This document shows, in pieces, positions 43,699 to 50,784 of a stretch of DNA of 64,000 nucleotides; the first letter of the stretch is position 1; every line of letters begins with the position of its first letter. The notes beneath the pieces were generated by a model that saw only the letters and a list, made by a program, of their open reading frames with translations, did not search any database and was not told where the DNA came from. The stretch spans positions 13,910 through 77,909 of the forward strand of contig JAYWGM010000080.1 in NCBI GenBank assembly GCA_043778225.1, given 5' to 3'. Source of the DNA: Deinococcales bacterium. GTDB taxonomy: Bacteria; Deinococcota; Deinococci; Deinococcales; JAAFIG01. A program made the translations under genes and the position numbers.

Positions 43699-43742
43699 CC
43701 TAAAAAATAGTAGGAAAAGTGCAAATCGTAGGAGGAATAACC

Positions 43743-44150
43743 ATGAGACGCGATAGCCTCATAGACCTTCAAGAACTCGTCTGGCACGGACGCTATGCCG
43801 TCAAGTCACACGCCACGCGCCACGCTCGAGCCGAAGGGTTTACCGAAGCCGATATGGTTCATGTCCTCGAGAATGGACGCGAACTGGCGGTCTACCCCGA
43901 AGACAAGCGAATGCTGGTGCTGGGCTATGTTTCCTTTGGTCCGCAACTGCACATTCCAATGCACGTTGTGGTGGACTACTCGGGGTATCGGTGGCTGGAC
44001 ATTGTGACTGCTTATATTCCAGACCAACCTTACCGTGTGGTCTCAAGGGAGCGGGTCGCCATTCTGGTTTCGGAAAACCGCGAGCGCACCATTCGCCCAA
44101 GGGAGCAACGCACACGGACTCGAGGCTGGGGTGGTTTTGCAATGCGTTAA
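43743..44150 (+). CDS. DUF4258 domain protein
   Basis: HATRHARAEG...YPEDKRMLVLG...PMHVVVD...IVTAYIP; AGGAGG RBS. Confidence 0.75.
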   Translation: MRRDSLIDLQELVWHGRYAVKSHATRHARAEGFTEADMVHVLENGRELAVYPEDKRMLVLGYVSFGPQLHIPMHVVVDYSGYRWLDIVTAYIPDQPYRVVSRERVAILVSENRERTIRPREQRTRTRGWGGFAMR

Positions 44151-44929
44151 TTTTGCCTTAACATCACGGCGGGCAATAAATGGGTTTGAACTTGGTGCAA
44201 AAAATCCGACAAGCCACAGTCTTTGCCGTTTTGATGCAGCGTCTCGAGGCTCGGGGCAGACCAACAAGCCATTTCTCGAGCCTCGCTAGAATCTGATAAG
44301 CGCCCCCAAATATCTTTAGCACAACGCGGATTATTTGGGGCATCGCGTAAGCGGTGTGGTTCTTGGATTGGGTGTATGCCAGCTAAGGTTTTGAGTTCGG
44401 TATCCACTCGAGTTTGTTCGGTTTTATTTTGTGGGATAAAGCCAGCCAACAACCATGCTTCACGGTAACGGTCTGGTGTACCGATTACCACTCCCACAGC
44501 TTTTCGAGCTTTGCTGATGCGCGTTCTGAGGTATTCGTCTTTGCCATGCTCGAGACCCGTTTGTAAATCCGACTGTGAGTGTGCATCAACATCGCGCATC
44601 AGCACCACAGCAAAAGCCGAACTTAACTCGGCAAGGCGCAAGACCTTTAGGGCATTGACTGCCTCGAGTTTTGGCGGAATGCCATCTCGAAAACGCCCAA
44701 GTACGGCTGGGACTCGAGTAGGTTTTTCGTCTTCGACAGCTTTATAGATTTTCTTGATACTTGCCCAACGCAGAAAATCCGTACCCTGTAAGAAACCACC
44801 CCAGACTGGACGGGCTTCGATGGCTAAATCTTCAAACCAAGCAATTTTTGTATGCAGCACACGTTCTGCTAAACCTTTGGCGACTCGAGCATCGCCACTT
44901 GCTTCGCAAGCAATTAAAATATCAGGCAC
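44147..44929 (-). CDS. Hypothetical partner of the AAA_21 ATPase (TOPRIM/RloB-like)
   Basis: ILIACEASGD, MRDVD, REAWLLAG; GTG start overlaps the ATPase stop. Confidence 0.65.
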   Translation of the reverse strand: MPDILIACEASGDARVAKGLAERVLHTKIAWFEDLAIEARPVWGGFLQGTDFLRWASIKKIYKAVEDEKPTRVPAVLGRFRDGIPPKLEAVNALKVLRLAELSSAFAVVLMRDVDAHSQSDLQTGLEHGKDEYLRTRISKARKAVGVVIGTPDRYREAWLLAGFIPQNKTEQTRVDTELKTLAGIHPIQEPHRLRDAPNNPRCAKDIWGRLSDSSEAREMACWSAPSLETLHQNGKDCGLSDFLHQVQTHLLPAVMLRQN

Positions 44930-46052
44930 GTGCTTTCTCCAAAAATAGTTCTTTAACCCAATCTTCGCCCACAAAACTCCAGAATTCGCCGGGGGTCATG
45001 GATTCACGCCACTGCTCAAAGTTTGGATACGCCTCGAGCGGTGCAACCAATGTGCCAAGCTCAGGGTCAAAGGTTGTGACCCGAACTTCTTTTGGCTCGA
45101 GTTCGTGCAGTACATAAGGCGAGTGACTGGTGGCAATGATTTGTAATCCCGATGTGATGGCTTGGATTTCGCGCAGCACACGAATCAGGTCTTTAACCGC
45201 TTTAGGATGTAAACCACGCTCAATATCATCAATCAGAATAACGGTATCGTTTTGGCTAATGGCAACAGTCACCAAAACAGTGAGTGCAAATAGTGTTCCT
45301 TCACTAACGAATTTTACAGCGACATTTGATGATTTTTCAAAATCAAACAACAATTGCTGACCAGTTCCAAACCGCCGAGCCAGAATATCCTCGAGAAGTT
45401 GTTCAGGGTCAGTCACGTTGAACCAGTCTTTTGCAGCGACTCGGGCAGGTTCAATTCTAAATTTTTGAAAATTAGGAATAATCTCTCTCATTTTAGCTTG
45501 AATCCAAGCAAACTTTTCAGGCTGTAAAGATTGTGTATAAGAGCAAATCGTTGCAAGTCCTAAACCTGTTGGTTCAAGTACAGGACTGAGATTTTCGCTG
45601 TACGATGCTCGAGCCGCATCGTTTCTCGAGAAAGTTATTATTTTTGAAGTCATTTTAGATATGACTGGAAAATTGTGTGCATCTCTTACTTCAAGTTCTC
45701 TACGGACTGATAGACCATTTATTTTAAGCGAATAGTTGTGACTAACCTGACTAAAATCAATTTGAAAGTCATCTGAATTCTCGAATTTATAAGAAAAAGA
45801 AATGGGTAATGGTTGTAAATTTTTTGATTCTAATGATTGCATTTCTTGAATAATCAGATTTTGTGCTTGAGGTCTGAATTCAACTCCCAAAAAATCAACA
45901 GGTACTCCTCTTAGTCCAACTATTCTTCTTATTCCCTCGAGAATGCTGCTTTTACCACTGGCGTTTGGTCCAACAATGACCGTAAACGGCTCGAGGGTCA
46001 GTTCGACATCGCGCAGGGCTAAAAAATTCTTAAAACCAACTTTCTCGAGCAT
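44922..46052 (-). CDS. AAA_21-type ABC ATPase
   Basis: GPNASGKS, VSEGT, IDDIERGLHP, TSHSP. Confidence 0.9.
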   Translation of the reverse strand: MLEKVGFKNFLALRDVELTLEPFTVIVGPNASGKSSILEGIRRIVGLRGVPVDFLGVEFRPQAQNLIIQEMQSLESKNLQPLPISFSYKFENSDDFQIDFSQVSHNYSLKINGLSVRRELEVRDAHNFPVISKMTSKIITFSRNDAARASYSENLSPVLEPTGLGLATICSYTQSLQPEKFAWIQAKMREIIPNFQKFRIEPARVAAKDWFNVTDPEQLLEDILARRFGTGQQLLFDFEKSSNVAVKFVSEGTLFALTVLVTVAISQNDTVILIDDIERGLHPKAVKDLIRVLREIQAITSGLQIIATSHSPYVLHELEPKEVRVTTFDPELGTLVAPLEAYPNFEQWRESMTPGEFWSFVGEDWVKELFLEKARA

Positions 46053-46064
46053 ACAGGCAGTCTA

Positions 46065-46919
46065 TCAGACATCCCAGTAAGTCAGTGGTGCGCCGTTCGG
46101 ATGCACCAGCCCAGAAAATTTTGCCAAGCCAGCTTTGTCGGGCATCTCGAGGTGATACCTAAAATTCCACAAGTAATGCTGCACAATCCGTTCGGGTAAA
46201 CCAAGGCGCTTGGCTTCGAGCGTGGCGATTTCTGCCAGATGCCCAATGCCAGTCCGTCGGGCGCGGCGCATGGCTAAGACCAACTCGAGCGGCGGCGGGT
46301 TGTCTATCCGCGTTGCCCAGACCGCAAACACAAAGGGCATTCCGGTGTGTTCGTACCAACTTGTCGAAAGGTCGGTGACTTGCACCGCTTGACCGCTCGA
46401 GAGCCGCCCAGTGTTGGGTAATCGAAACATTTGGGTGGTTTCGGAAATCGGTCCACACAACCTGTACCACTCCGACAATGCCCCGTCGCCAATCAGCAGC
46501 GCGGCTGGGTAATGCTCGAGTAAATGCTCTAAGTTGGGTTCGGCTGGCTCGAGCTTGGCATTGATTCCATCGAGCTTTAGAAGCGTCTCGAGCAATTTGA
46601 CGCTGGTGGCAGAGTGGGTCGTGACCGCAATGGTTTTGCCATTCAAATCTGCCCATGGCACAGTATGAAATAAACTAACGCTGTAGACCGCCCCGAGAAC
46701 CGAAATAGAAAAATCGGGCAAAGCCCGCAATTTGTCGGCGTTTTCGATCAGTTCAAATGCCGAAATGTTGGCAAGGTCTACCCGTCCCTCGAGCAGTGCA
46801 GTGTTGATTTGGGTCGGTACACCGCGTATCCATTGGGTGGCTTGTCCGCTCAGTTCTGACTCGAGGCTGTGCAAAAGCGGAGCGACGTTGGTGTATCCAA
46901 TTATCCCGAGGCGGGTCAT
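46065..46919 (-). CDS. mqnA: Chorismate dehydratase (futalosine menaquinone pathway)
   Basis: GYTNVAPL, GAVYSV, SATSVKL, LLIGDGAL, PFVFAVW. Confidence 0.92.
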   Translation of the reverse strand: MTRLGIIGYTNVAPLLHSLESELSGQATQWIRGVPTQINTALLEGRVDLANISAFELIENADKLRALPDFSISVLGAVYSVSLFHTVPWADLNGKTIAVTTHSATSVKLLETLLKLDGINAKLEPAEPNLEHLLEHYPAALLIGDGALSEWYRLCGPISETTQMFRLPNTGRLSSGQAVQVTDLSTSWYEHTGMPFVFAVWATRIDNPPPLELVLAMRRARRTGIGHLAEIATLEAKRLGLPERIVQHYLWNFRYHLEMPDKAGLAKFSGLVHPNGAPLTYWDV

Positions 46920-47135
46920 AAGAGTAGTTTAACTCTTTTGTAGCCTCTGCTTGACTTCAATCTGGCTTTATGGGTTTTAATACGTGATTGAAGGTTGTTC
47001 AGTGCGTATTCAGTGTTTGTTCAGCACTCGAGTTTTATGGTGATATGGTGGGAGATAATAGGTCTAAAAAGGGAGAAGAATGAAACAGCACAGCACAGCA
47101 CTAGCTCGAGACAGACTTCACAACGGGAGAAAACC

Positions 47136-47680
47136 ATGCTGCCAGCAGTTCGACTGATTTGTAAATCGGCACATTTTGCTTCATATGTTCACCAAGAAAT
47201 AGCGTCCTATGGTTTGACCATAAACCCGAATGCCGAATACACCATTTTATTTTGGTCGAAGCCCTGTACGGCACAGCCGTAACTGAACTCGAGAACTCCG
47301 AGATTGACCCAACAAAAACCCTTGTGTTTACCACCAATCCATGCCCCGAATACTGGCAAGATGTGCTTGATTTACCGGTGCAAGGTTTGGTGGTGAATTC
47401 GCTCGACCAAAGCACCTGTATCACCGCCTTAAAAGCCATCTCGAGTGGCGAACTTTTTAAGCGATTGCCACCAGCAAAAGACCTTCATTTGAACCAGAGT
47501 GAACGCGAGGTTCTGAGGCTTGTGGCACGGAGTTTTAGCAATAAGGAAATTCAGGGCATCACTGGACTTGCCGATAAATACGTGCAGAACAACGTCGCCA
47601 GCCCACTCAGAAAATTACCAGAGGCGTACCCAGAATTGCGTTTCTCGAATCGTGGTTGTCTCATGCACTATTATCGTGTT
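47136..47680 (+). pseudogene. Frameshifted LuxR-C-terminal regulator (NPCPEYW type), 3' end fused to foreign DNA
   Basis: ATG 47136 with GGAGA RBS; a 5-bp duplication ATTTT-ATTTT (47244-47253) shifts the frame; HTH LNQSEREVLRLVARSFSNKEI. Confidence 0.75.
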
Positions 47681-47912
47681 TTTCTTTATGAGGTTTGCAT
47701 TCTTGAAATTTCCAATGAAGAAATTTCAGGCTGCTATACCTATGCTTTTATTTAACTTTATTCCAATATCAGGTGATATAACCGGACCTTCAAATCTAAC
47801 GATTATCTCACCAACTGGGATTGTCCTATTTGATTTCTACTTTTTGTTTCTACTCAATCTTTTTGCGATCATTCTCGCCTTTTTTCTTTCATCACAAAAG
47901 CAAAAATCTTAA
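47670..47912 (+). pseudogene. 5'-truncated small membrane protein, paralog of 48481-48762
   Basis: FMRFAFLKFP...LLNLFAIILAFFLSSQK versus CLRFVFAKKP...LLSLVAIILAYSLTSHK; AT-rich. Confidence 0.55.
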
Positions 47913-47943
47913 TCGCCTGATTTTAACCAAGGAAGTGTTAGTC

Positions 47944-47969
47944 TAAGCTCATGAAAATCCATCTAATTG
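47944..47969 (+). repeat. Degenerate copy 1 of the deoB -10/start region
   Basis: TAAGCTC-ATGAAAATCCATCTAATTG. Confidence 0.75.
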
Positions 47970-48044
47970 ACCTAAAAAGTAAGCTAGGGAGAGTTCAGAA
48001 ATATATTTCTGAATTCTCATTTTTGACCAGTTAAGGAAAAAGTT

Positions 48045-48401
48045 ATGCTTGAGATACTTCTTGTAGGTTGGTTCGGCATACCTAACATTCTGTTGGGTAT
48101 ACTATATGGGGTGGGGATTGGCTTAATCGTTAGTCGTGTAAAAAAATCTACAATTACAAATACTTTCTTTGCATTCTTGGTGTTCAGTGTAGCTACCTTT
48201 GTACTGACTAATTCTTATCTGAATGCGGCACAATTGTCTTTCTGGGAAGCATTCAATCAAATCACCAAATCTCAATTTGCACGAGATGCAGTCGCTAGTT
48301 TTATGCTTGGACTGGGTACAATCATTGGGTTTTCAGCTTTTATAGGCTATTGGCAAATAAGCCACAAAATTCAACCACAGGACTCGAGCGCAATTTCTTA
48401 G
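48045..48401 (+). CDS. Small AT-rich multi-TM membrane protein
   Basis: AAGGA RBS; three hydrophobic segments. Confidence 0.75.
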   Translation: MLEILLVGWFGIPNILLGILYGVGIGLIVSRVKKSTITNTFFAFLVFSVATFVLTNSYLNAAQLSFWEAFNQITKSQFARDAVASFMLGLGTIIGFSAFIGYWQISHKIQPQDSSAIS

Positions 48402-48417
48402 AGAAGAGCTTCGCATC

Positions 48418-48447
48418 TAGACTCTTTCATTCAAGTCCATCTGATTG
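48418..48447 (+). repeat. Degenerate copy 2 of the deoB -10/start region
   Basis: TAGACTCTTTC-ATTCAAGTCCATCTGATTG. Confidence 0.65.
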
Positions 48448-48480
48448 CAGATTTTGTGTGGCTTTAACCGAGGTCTCGAG

Positions 48481-48762
48481 ATGATAAATTTTATAATTTT
48501 TGGTTTTCCAATACTTTTGTTCATTTGCTTGCGGTTTGTGTTTGCTAAGAAGCCAGAAACCAGAAAAGTCTTCTATCTTTTTTGTATGCTTCTGCCAGTT
48601 TTATCGTTACTTCCGAGTATAGTTATGAAACCTCAAGTCTTACGACCATTGGTATTGCCAGACGGCGAGGTGTTGGTTTCGCCATCCATTATGGGCTTAT
48701 TAAGTCTTGTTGCTATTATCCTCGCCTATTCACTGACCTCACATAAAGTAAAGCAGTCTTAG
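48481..48762 (+). CDS. Small AT-rich multi-TM membrane protein
   Basis: GAGG RBS; hydrophobic segments. Confidence 0.75.
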   Translation: MINFIIFGFPILLFICLRFVFAKKPETRKVFYLFCMLLPVLSLLPSIVMKPQVLRPLVLPDGEVLVSPSIMGLLSLVAIILAYSLTSHKVKQS

Positions 48763-48772
48763 TTCAAGAAAT

Positions 48773-48867
48773 CATGGAAAGAGTTTAGATGTTAAGCTCT
48801 TTCCATGAAAATCCATGTGATTGTGCTTGATAGCGTTGGCGTTGGCGCACTGCCTGATGCTTCGGAA
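48773..48867 (+). repeat. Copy 3 of the deoB 5' end (hairpin, -10 box and first ~21 codons)
   Basis: Encodes [19 protein letters not shown], identical to DeoB; 6 nt differences, all synonymous. Confidence 0.95.
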
Positions 48868-49032
48868 ATTGTGCTAATGGCTCGAGCCGCAATGATAGGT
48901 TTTAATGATGGGATGCGTTAGAACCTTGGGGCTGTCGCTACTGCCAATCGGCAACCACAAAAACCAAAAAAGATGAGAATATAAACACGATTTATACTTG
49001 ACAGTTACACCAAAGCAGACTACCCTCGAGTC

Positions 49033-49281
49033 ATGACTTTAGAACTCCCCCAGCACCTCGAAGAGTGGATACAAGCCCAAGTACAATCTGGTAAGTACGC
49101 CAACCCTGTCGAAGTGATTCAAAATACCCTCGAGACTGCTTTGCGACAAGCCCAAGCCCAAGCTGCTCTCGAGACAATGCTAGACCGTGGTTTTGCAGAT
49201 GTTGGAAGTGGTAAAACACATCGGTTTGAAACACTTGAAGACTTCCGAGCCGCTGTGCAAGCGCGAGTTCAAACAGCATGA
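49033..49281 (+). CDS. ParD-like (CC2985-type RHH) antitoxin
   Basis: LEEWIQAQVQSGKYANPVEVI; TTGACA-17-TACCCT promoter upstream. Confidence 0.85.
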   Translation: MTLELPQHLEEWIQAQVQSGKYANPVEVIQNTLETALRQAQAQAALETMLDRGFADVGSGKTHRFETLEDFRAAVQARVQTA

Positions 49282-49574
49282 GTCTTGGCTACGAATTCTC
49301 GAGTGTTGCGCTTGAAGATATTGCCGAGATATTTGTGTATTACACCCGAATTTTGAACGCAGAAATTGCTCAAGCTCGAGTGGATGAAATTTTTTATCGA
49401 GTCAAAGAAATTTGCGATTTTCCGGATTCAGGGCAACTTGTACCTTCGCGGCGCAAGGGTGTAAGGCGAATTATGCAACGCGACTACCTGATTTTTTATG
49501 TTTTGCGTGAAGCAACCATTTTTGTTTTACGGGTACAGCATGGGCGGCGTGACCTGACGGATTTGGTGTTGTAA
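49278..49574 (+). CDS. RelE/ParE-family toxin
   Basis: ALEDIAEIFVY...FPDSG...YLIFY...VLRVQHGRRD; ATGA coupling. Confidence 0.9.
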   Translation: MSLGYEFSSVALEDIAEIFVYYTRILNAEIAQARVDEIFYRVKEICDFPDSGQLVPSRRKGVRRIMQRDYLIFYVLREATIFVLRVQHGRRDLTDLVL

Positions 49575-49620
49575 AAAATTGAAGTTTCAAGATGTGATTG
49601 GAGAGTGTTAAACTCATTCC

Positions 49621-50784
49621 ATGAAAATCCATGTGATTGTGCTTGATAGTGTTGGGGTTGGTGCGTTACCTGATGCTCATGAATTCTCAAGCAGTTCCAG
49701 CCATCCGCGTGGCGATGAGGGTTCGCATACGATTAACCATATTTTGGAACAAACGGGTATTAAATTACCGAATCTCGAGGCGCTGGGCTTAGGCTGGATT
49801 CCAACGGTGCAGGCAACCAAAGTACCAAAGCCAACAGGCAGCTATGGGCGGATGCTCGAGGTCAGTAAGGGCAAAGACACCAGCACAGGGCATTGGGAAT
49901 TTATGGGGATACAACTCGAGCATCCTTTTCAGGTTTTCCCGCAGGGCTTTCCAAAGCCAGTTATGGATATGTTCAGTGCTGCCATCGGGCGTGGCTGGCT
50001 GTGCAATAAGCCTTACAGTGGCACGGATGTCATCCGCGATTATGGGGCGCAACACCTCGAGACTGGCTTCCCGATTTGCTACACCAGTGCTGATTCTGTT
50101 TTTCAGATTGCCGCCCACGAAGACCGTGTACCACTCGAGACCCTATACCGTTGGTGCAAAGCGGCACGCGGTATTTTGCAGGGCGAATTTGCCGTGGCTC
50201 GAGTTATTGCCCGTCCGTTTAAGGGCATTCATCCGTTTGAACGCGCCAACGAAGACCGCAAAGATTTTTCGCTCGAGCCACCGCCAAATGTGCTGGATGC
50301 TTTATTAGCAGCAAAGCTAGATGTGATTGGGCTGGGTAAAATTCCAGATATTTATGCCGAGCGCGGTTTTACCAAAAAAATTCATACCGACAATAACGAT
50401 GATGGAGTGCAGAAGATGCTCAAAGTCATGCGCTCGGACTTTAACGGCTTGGCATTTCTAAACTTGGTGGATTTTGACGCTAAATTTGGTCATCGGCGTG
50501 ATGTGCTTGGCTATGCCCAAGCGCTTCAAACCTTCGACGCGCAACTGCCCGAAATTTTGCAAGCCGTCTCGAGCGGCGATGCCCTCTATTTGATTTCTGA
50601 CCACGGCAACGACCCCACTTGGTTTGGTACAGACCACACCCGCGAACACGCGCTGCTGCTCGAGTACCGCCCGAATGTGGCATCTCGAGACTTGGGTGAA
50701 CGCCGCACTTTTGCCGATGTGGGCGCAACCGTCTGTGCTGCCCTTGGTGTGCCGTGGGCTGGGCATGGCACGAGTTTTTTTTAG
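49621..50784 (+). CDS. deoB: Phosphopentomutase
   Basis: [44 protein letters not shown]. Confidence 0.97.

Follow-up and report, generated by a model that had tools for sequence, protein, structure and literature searches.

The array of small genes in front of deoB is read here, with a probability of roughly 70%, as the scar of two or three successive insertions of related bacteria's DNA into deoB by general recombination. The window (the whole stretch of Deinococcales DNA analysed, 64,000 nucleotides long) contains four copies of the deoB promoter and start, the last of which is deoB itself, and these repeats are real. The original prediction had proposed that foreign DNA was captured repeatedly at this site and that a leftover start remained from every event, and our analysis supports this. 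Similar scars occur at several other genes of the same genome, and they therefore represent a known mode of insertion instead of a new integron-like device.

Repeated deoB starts and their cargo

The features of the region are as follows.

46065..46919, minus strand: mqnA-family gene, the left core flank (PF02621, E 3.5e-55; tblastn of relatives)
47136..47755, plus strand: LuxR-type regulator split over two frames (47136-47282 and 47252-47755; GerE below the cut-off)
47680..47912 (left end approximate), plus strand: m1, 5'-truncated membrane gene (hydrophobic ORF, GC 0.32)
47934..48019, plus strand: copy 1, decayed deoB promoter (TAGTCT, 47939-47944), ATG at 47951 and about 69 nt of coding start, with a 27-codon ORF
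47989..48018, plus strand: terminator-like 13-bp hairpin and T-run inside copy 1 (-16.5 kcal/mol, z -3.6)
48045..48401, plus strand: m2, 118-aa orphan membrane protein (three hydrophobic stretches, purine-rich leader)
48404..48447, plus strand: probable copy 2, weakly evidenced and the most decayed (TAGACT, 48418-48423; ATG changed to ATT)
48481..48762, plus strand: m3, 93-aa membrane protein with 59-60% identical homologues in genomes G001 and G003
48772..48808, no strand: 16-bp inverted repeat, the copy 3 promoter and start with its mirror image (-22.2 kcal/mol, z -7.1)
48781..48861, plus strand: copy 3, promoter (TAAGCT, 48793-48798), ATG at 48805 and 57 nt of the deoB coding start
48928..48987, plus strand: 3' end (remnant) of a tfoX-type gene, 75% identical to a TfoX_N gene on contig C31
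48998..49026, plus strand: predicted own promoter of parD (TTGACA-17 nt-TACCCT, 6 nt before the ATG)
49033..49574, plus strand: ParD antitoxin (49033-49281) and ParE toxin (49278-49574), with PF03693 and PF05016 above the cut-off
49606..50784, plus strand: copy 4, working promoter (TAAACT, 49609-49614) and deoB, phosphopentomutase (49621-50784)

All four starts lie where they had been predicted, at 47951, 48429, 48805 and 49621, and each has a TAnnCT hexamer 5-6 nt upstream of the start position. The repeat spans the start of deoB, which is intact in copy 4 as a full 387-aa ORF above the equivalog cut-off (TIGR01696 and NF003766). Copies 3 and 4 (48790-48861 and 49606-49677) form a direct repeat of more than 30 bp with 89% identity over 72 nt (blastn E 2e-19) and no further strong match anywhere in the genome; 5 of their 19 codons differ, all silently. 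On a profile of the deoB starts of the genus, copy 1 ranks third among 8.05 million genome positions, with only copies 3 and 4 above it (0.001 expected per 2.7 kb). An additional 10-nt in-register match at deoB nt 60-69, a match that 22 of 300,000 random windows reach, indicates that copy 1 probably spanned at least 69 nt, compared to 57 for copy 3, which contradicts the claim that the distal copies are shorter. They were also said to be more degenerate: copies 1 and 2 are indeed decayed, copy 2 more so than copy 1.

In a genome-wide scan, copy 2 is weak on a 7-codon profile, on which 94 genome positions equal its score (0.03 expected per 2.7 kb), and five further ungapped profiles gave it no significant score. 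In gapped shuffles, a check proposed for the degenerate copies from the outset, its score was reached by 5 of 1000 against copy 4 and by 1 of 1000 against copy 3. Its palindrome matches that of copy 3 in inverted orientation at a score reached by 0 of 1000 shuffles, and copy 2 is a probable deoB-start relic. Copies 1 and 2 have in common a G-to-C change that is absent from the functional deoB starts of all seven congeners, so that one may be a duplicate of the other. The upstream part of copy 3 matches three genomes (G001, G003 and G005) out to about -24 (84-85% over 82 nt), copy 4 matches them only from about -2, and over the 57 nt of deoB copy 3 is nearer to five of the seven congeners, by only 2-4 mismatches. 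Judged by these differences, the copies look like alleles of different lineages.

The units between the starts (478, 376 and 816 bp, each insert below 20 kb) agree with the earlier description of a truncated m1, membrane genes m2 and m3, and ParDE, to which the tfoX-type 3' end is added as the first part of the unit downstream of copy 3. The proteins m1 and m3 are homologous (score 84, 0 of 5000 shuffles), with 32% identity between them compared to 59% between m3 and the genes of other species. The G001 and G003 homologues of m3 stand at a different locus, behind the gene of a secreted-type protein or its remnant, and this context weakly suggests that m1 and m3 are possibly orphan immunity-type genes. 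A search for homologues of m3 in the contig data matched only m3, and an alignment search for further family members across 19 genomes found none. A metagenome scan gave five loci at 55-69% identity, too distant to use. All atlas hits scored under 0.9 and are no more than leads, for m3 to DUF5966. The homologue search with m2 returned m2 alone, none of 18 relatives carries one, and m2 was rejected as a paralogue of m1 or m3 (1176 and 2468 of 5000 shuffles); neither m2 nor ParDE is related to m1 or m3. The 3' part of the LuxR-type regulator overlaps m1, and its paralogue on contig C66 sits in one frame. Among the ORFs scanned in the region there is no recombinase or transposase.

The idea that a leftover start serves as promoter for the next cassette probably fails for two of the three copies, because the terminator-like hairpin stands between the copy 1 promoter and m2, and because parD has its own predicted promoter (read from sequence, and missed by a stricter promoter scan), which would make copy 3 unneeded. 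Copy 2 may still act in this way for m3.

The deoB site in relatives and similar scars elsewhere

The mqnA-family gene is the divergent neighbour of deoB in three relatives, with a gap of 60 (G007), 153 (G006) or 576 bp (G002) versus 2.7 kb here, and in G001, G003 and G005 a molybdopterin oxidoreductase gene ends 18 nt before deoB. Variable content of this interval had been anticipated together with recurring repeats; the length does vary, but none of 18 family genomes has a second deoB start nearby, nor has any of the seven congeners by DNA comparison. These empty-site genomes are other species, not strains of the same species. No same-species strain with an empty or differently filled deoB site was found, and for this reason we infer the order and number of events.

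The same anatomy, a truncated gene end followed by low-GC cargo and the intact gene, occurs at eight strong loci with unrelated sequences, namely at sufD, deoB, pgm, an aldehyde dehydrogenase gene, valS, an S9 peptidase gene, a YegS-type kinase gene and an AlbA/RecG-type gene. The cargo consists of TA modules, a methylase (at the locus on contig C92), BrxC/D-type ATPases with a helicase, and a Schlafen protein. With about 2,950 genes in each class, 16 non-paralogous copies of gene ends were counted outward and 5 inward at distances of 150 bp or more, or 8 versus 1 at a score of at least 25, compared to only 4 versus 1 in 0.92 Mb around the TA genes of four congener genomes. The 11 loci that were counted have 42 silent and 26 non-silent codon differences in total; the sufD copy, whose start is not duplicated in any of the seven congeners, has 2 silent versus 6 non-silent differences, and the valS copy 18 silent versus 4 amino-acid-changing codons.

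The allele test is clear at valS only. There, the displaced end clusters with the G003 working end (97/95 support), to which it is 89% identical, versus 81% to its own gene. Over the first 1750 nt, too, G003 is the sister (87/99), while the working valS is just 48-64% like the congeners in nt 1750-2500. The stranded end thus appears native and the working end foreign, a pattern that points to ordinary recombination with relatives' DNA. The left joint of the valS cassette is identical in three species.

The hexamer CTCGAG lies within 5 nt of the inner joint in 4 of the 8 strong and 6 of all 16 cases (null 0.117), with a post hoc p of about 0.01 after five distance thresholds had been tried. It occurs family-wide once per 162 bp, and 0 of 4 joints in congeners have it within 12 nt. 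In the congeners deoB nt 66-71 read CTCGAG, here they read CTCAAG, and the copy 1 match ends within that hexamer. We regard CTCGAG at inner joints as a hint only. A literature search for CTCGAG as a highly iterated palindrome gave no match, and one for deoB as an insertion site returned nothing that looked related.

Proposed origin and alternative explanations

The incoming fragment would have carried the donor's upstream gene or genes together with the donor's deoB promoter and start, and the host's general recombination machinery would have recombined it into deoB, stranding the previous start upstream. One joint would be homologous and lie within deoB, the other presumably about 57-69 nt into the resident gene. 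As the incoming piece supplies a new promoter and start, deoB stays intact. Were the second joint to lie further upstream, the older cargo would be exchanged and no repeat would remain. ParDE with the broken tfoX end, as the newest cargo, is predicted to adjoin deoB, the dead starts would decay afterwards (copy 1 now contains the terminator-like hairpin), and some of the stack may already have been assembled when it arrived. Downstream of copy 3 the cargo begins inside the tfoX-type gene, which fits a random fragment, and the uptake genes ComEC and DprA are present in the genome. The second joint could be illegitimate, by homology-facilitated illegitimate recombination, which pairs a RecA-dependent anchor with 3-10 bp of microhomology at the other joint, or result from a single crossover of a trimmed and recircularised fragment, and we have no preference between the two. 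In the relevant part of one E. coli study, linear DNA was trimmed, recircularised and integrated with partial duplications of 109-950 bp, while classical homology-facilitated illegitimate recombination is described there as usually deleting, not duplicating, resident DNA, which counts against it (Amarir-Bouhram et al., 2011, PMC3240628).

Local tandem duplication of a block consisting of a membrane gene and the deoB start, with later decay and replacement of genes but no foreign deoB alleles, would explain why m1 with copy 1 aligns continuously with m3 and copy 3 (score 73, 0 of 1000 shuffles) and why copies 1 and 2 have one derived base in common. The genome also has 17 short tandem duplications at gene ends, and at sufD a whole block of TA and lipoprotein genes is repeated. 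We consider this origin unlikely: m3 is much nearer to the G001 and G003 genes than to m1, m2 and ParDE fall outside the m1/m3 family, and a dead duplicate should gain amino-acid-changing differences, of which copy 3 has none in 19 codons. At valS, moreover, the two ends in one genome are not each other's closest relatives. The silent-only differences of copy 3 and the valS allele pattern favour host recombination with relatives' DNA. An extension of that recombination, in which recombinase-free cassettes prime their own spread, the stranded gene end serving as a portable second homology arm so that cargo enters the empty sites of other species and stacks by order of arrival at core genes, is rather unlikely. 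The valS cassette, with its joint shared by three species, would illustrate this, and CTCGAG might supply the first illegitimate joints. For the cyanobacterial HIP1 a comparable role has been proposed.

A site-specific recombinase acting in trans, with the deoB promoter/start and palindrome as attachment site and stacking as in integrons or dif modules, appears quite improbable. The stacking is polar, copy 3 has its 16-bp inverted repeat and copy 2 a related inverted palindrome, and the shared valS joint could be taken as its product; however, a single event spread by homologous recombination also gives such a joint. The palindrome is missing on folding of copies 1 and 4, and the eight loci have unrelated target genes. 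The genome-wide search recommended for recombinases did find three tyrosine recombinases, one of which adjoins tRNA-Arg, but nothing of the resolvase type and no integron integrase IntI (best 39.5 bits versus a cut-off of 265, in a genome assembly 89% complete). An exact-pattern search for attC (RYYYAAC ... GTTRRRY pairs) found none on either strand of 47600-49700, and with strong folding at copy 3 only, an attC- or dif-like reading of the palindromes was rejected. An assembly artefact, in which the repeat led to the joining of strain variants or of a small ParDE circle, is very improbable. Short-word contigs do break at the exact repeat that copies 3 and 4 have in common, and both joints there are left unbridged, but this repeat is just about 33 nt long and a single contig contains copies 1 and 2. 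The contigs of two runs (possible source data) tile the region without differences and at even depth over the three pieces (26.6/27/29.7 and 13.8/12.7/12.5), m2 and m3 are present on four contigs of up to 122 kb, and the tfoX remnant and parD recur at 0-1 differences in one run of a second study. Among the contigs, no joint that skips a cassette or lies between copies is listed.

Comparison with known systems

Integrons combine IntI, attI, attC and a promoter Pc with a polar array of small genes that include TA pairs. The deoB array is likewise a polar array of small genes with a TA pair, the newest predicted at one end, but its spacers derive from the start of a host gene and broken gene ends are found among its cargo. 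With no IntI, no attC and like scars at unrelated genes, an integron-like device peculiar to deoB is not upheld. The orphan immunity arrays of the Vibrio cholerae T6SS, as far as that part of the source describes them, are similarly integrase-free and grow by successive insertions at a conserved neighbour with displacement of older genes, and their likeness to integrons is remarked there too (Kirchberger et al., 2017, PMC5361080). Those arrays are anchored on effector-cluster DNA that lies upstream, and they lose the old effector (PMC5361080, same part), whereas the anchor at deoB is a housekeeping gene on the downstream side, with duplication of its start. The combination of a homologous with a non-homologous joint is found in homology-facilitated illegitimate recombination or single-crossover insertion-duplication, where, in the section concerned, 56 of 60 clones had part of the homologous locus duplicated (Amarir-Bouhram et al., 2011, PMC3240628). 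Those duplications arose in laboratory conjugation of E. coli and are longer than the 57-69 bp at deoB.

The deoB array shares its mode with insertion with long target duplication, and not with the restriction-modification subset of that mode. Such insertions were reportedly recognised by Nobusato et al. in 2000. In the sections of the survey by Furuta, Abe and Kobayashi (2010, PMC2853133) that bear on it, accessory genes likewise stand between direct repeats of more than 30 bp without a mobility gene, and the repeat covers a translation start or stop while the target gene remains intact. A one-copy empty site in relatives is a further likeness, as each of the 18 family genomes has a single deoB start. 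The cases in those sections come mostly from naturally competent species, and restriction-enzyme breaks are suggested as a contributor (PMC2853133). The differences are that restriction-modification genes were the search criterion there, while the cargo at deoB is ParDE and membrane genes, and that the described events are single, with near-identical repeats in the Table 2 cases, while those at deoB are stacked with allele-like repeats (PMC2853133, same sections). This genome shows the mode at about eight loci with mostly non-restriction cargo, which together with the valS pattern points to ordinary recombination with relatives' DNA as its mechanism. The deoB stack is a tidy example of this mode and not a new system.

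Stacked copies of the deoB start

The deoB array is a real, stacked case of a known mode of insertion. Re-checking the sequence bore out the four predicted copies of the deoB promoter and start, at 47951, 48429, 48805 and 49621 (copies 1 to 4, copy 4 being the working deoB), each with a TAnnCT hexamer immediately 5' of the start, a leaderless promoter pattern described for Deinococcus-Thermus (PMC12340547). Over 72 nt, copy 3 shares 89% identity with the promoter and start of deoB. When 8.05 million positions were scored against a profile of deoB starts in the genus, copies 4, 3 and 1, in that order, took the top three places. The case for copy 2 is weak: 0.03 equal matches are expected per 2.7 kb (best of six profiles), and gapped shuffles reached its score in 5 of 1000 trials against copy 4 and 1 of 1000 against copy 3; the score of its inverted palindrome was reached in none of 1000. 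Since the match of copy 1 persists in register at deoB nt 60-69 (22 of 300,000 random windows), copy 1 was probably longer than copy 3 originally. Related palindromes with inverted centers lie at 48404-48428 (copy 2) and 48772-48808 (copy 3), the left arm of the latter mirroring the promoter and start; they possibly reflect hairpin-driven template switching.

Contigs from two possible source runs span 44000-48830, 48804-49646 and 49620 onward with zero differences and even depth; because they break at a short exact repeat, the joints of copies 3 and 4 are unbridged. A run from a second study carries 48871-49021 with one difference and 49033-49183 with none.

From mqnA, the order is a frameshifted LuxR-type gene, m1 (a membrane gene truncated at its 5' end), copy 1, the membrane gene m2, copy 2, the membrane gene m3, copy 3, the 3' end of a tfoX-type gene, ParDE and the working deoB start. 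The GC content is 0.32-0.39 across m1 to m3 and 0.52-0.55 in the flanks. Genes m1 and m3 are homologous (score reached in 0 of 5000 shuffles), m2 was related to neither in the same comparison, and searches for m2 homologues, relatives included, detected none. Homologues of m3 with 59-60% identity occur in 2 of 18 relatives, at a different locus:

L071:44-1779 (congener G003, contig C115), 374-aa secreted-type protein with a hydrophobic tail, and m3-family gene
L072:131-1068 (congener G001, contig C399), m3-family locus with a tail different from that in G003 and two family members

The 374-aa protein, which has a signal-type start, precedes the m3 homologue in G003, as does a similar tail remnant in G001. 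A Pfam search found no family for the proteins of these loci, the 374-aa protein included. This genomic context suggests that the m3-type membrane genes may be immunity-type genes and makes the locus a candidate toxin-immunity locus. On the far side of mqnA (43719-46052), a lower-GC AAA_21-type ATPase gene, a 275-aa partner of unknown function and a DUF4258 gene form a possible defense or toxin-antitoxin (TA) module.

deoB was found in all 40 relatives searched, and no second start lies near it in 18 family genomes (upstream DNA is short for three). The mqnA-deoB gap measures 60 bp in G007, 153 bp in G006 and 576 bp in G002, and in G001, G003 and G005 a molybdopterin oxidoreductase gene takes its place; the site is therefore variable within the genus. 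The array is so far known from this genome alone.

Displaced ends at other genes

We searched each gene end against the flanking 7 kb in both directions (our own gene calls, roughly 2,950 genes per class), excluding contig-end self-hits, full paralogues and 17 tandem repeats shorter than 150 bp. The remaining end copies lay outward in 16 cases and inward in 5 (8 and 1 at a score of at least 25); a blastn screen gave 11 and 3. The eight strong targets are sufD, deoB, pgm, valS and genes for an aldehyde dehydrogenase, an S9 peptidase, a YegS-type kinase and an AlbA/RecG-type protein, with PIN, ParE and other TA modules, a methylase, BrxC/D-type ATPases with a helicase, XisH/I and a Schlafen protein as cargo. 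The surroundings of TA genes in four congeners (60 loci, 0.92 Mb) yielded four outward copies, rpoC and nuoG among them, and one inward.

L051:1536-7120 (this genome, C81), sufD upstream block: antitoxin, PIN, antitoxin, RelE/ParE-type and lipoprotein genes, twice, diverged
L056:4327-9350 (this genome, C65), L063 and L064, valS locus
L117:1720-6309 (G006, C12), displaced rpoC 3' end, 150 nt, 976 bp downstream
L091:13041-15407 (G003, C98), displaced nuoG 3' end, 42 nt, 714 bp downstream

At sufD, a 99-nt copy of the start separates the two diverged blocks, and further PIN pairs lie farther out. Contigs C86, C101, C56, C72, C91, C51, C57 and C94 of this genome carry 17 short tandem duplications (about 46-120 bp) that overlap the 3' ends of genes; three begin at CTCGAG.

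This hexamer looks like a highly iterated palindrome, occurring 24,877 times in the genome (one per 162 bp) and every 111-245 bp across loci of genome family f1; its excess is common to all of f1 and missing in family f3, and TTCGAA, GTCGAC and CTGCAG are nearly absent from this genome. Of the 8 strong cases, 4 have it no more than 5 nt from the inner joint (p ~0.01, after the fact), as do 0 of 4 congener cases, an unconfirmed hint of a link.

Origin of the copies

Judged by sequence, the gene-end copies resemble alleles of distinct origin. Between copy 3 and deoB, 5 of 19 codons differ, always silently; a dead duplicate would be expected to accumulate amino-acid changes. Upstream, copy 3 stays similar to G001, G003 and G005 as far as about -24, farther than the working promoter does; the allele signal of its 57 coding bases alone is small. 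At valS, the displaced 160 nt cluster with the working end of G003 (support 97/95), which is also the sister over the first 1750 nt (87/99). Within the working gene, nt 1750-2500 (~750 nt) are only 48-64% similar to congeners, which share 79-89% with each other. At this locus the stranded end thus seems to be the native one and the working end to be foreign. The valS copy and its SMEK, HTH and PIN cassette recur at valS in G003 and G001; G002, G006 and G007 carry other neighbors. Counting against the allele reading, 26 of 68 codon differences over 11 loci, and 6 of 8 at sufD, change the amino acid.

The array had been predicted to be integron-like, which did not hold: none of the three tyrosine recombinases in the genome (89% complete) is IntI, and no attC pattern occurs within the array. 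A search of the same genome found no resolvase-type enzyme, and a single attachment site is hard to reconcile with eight unrelated targets. The array acts like a polar cassette array, yet it is no integron. The proposal that leftover starts serve as promoters remains plausible for one copy: a 13-bp hairpin and T-run lie within copy 1, 5' of m2, parD has its own predicted promoter (TTGACA-17-TACCCT), and the -10 box of copy 3 forms one arm of a 16-bp inverted repeat. Copy 2, which lies 52 nt 5' of m3, is the only one that could drive its neighbor.

Comparison with known insertion modes

A fragment of a relative's DNA probably paired via deoB and joined with its other end about 57-69 nt inside the resident deoB, so that resident cargo and start remained upstream. 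ComEC and DprA are encoded in the genome. Two routes fit: homology-facilitated illegitimate recombination, in which resident DNA is usually deleted, or a single crossover with a fragment that had been trimmed and recircularised. In E. coli, the second route left partial duplications in 56 of 60 clones (PMC3240628). One derived base is common to copies 1 and 2, so the stack may record two events at deoB plus a third at a copy that was dead by then, or it may have arrived partly ready-made.

We found no published account of stacked gene-start copies in the literature outside subscription journals, and the word 'tandem' is absent from the main text of Furuta et al. (2010), who described insertion with long target duplication, its repeats often spanning a start or stop without disrupting the gene; most cases come from competent species, and no mechanism had been settled (PMC2853133). 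The deoB locus has the structure of such insertions but lacks restriction-modification cargo. Gene-turnover hotspots are the subject of PMC5635113, and sequential, integrase-free displacement has been proposed for Vibrio immunity arrays (Kirchberger et al., 2017; PMC5361080).
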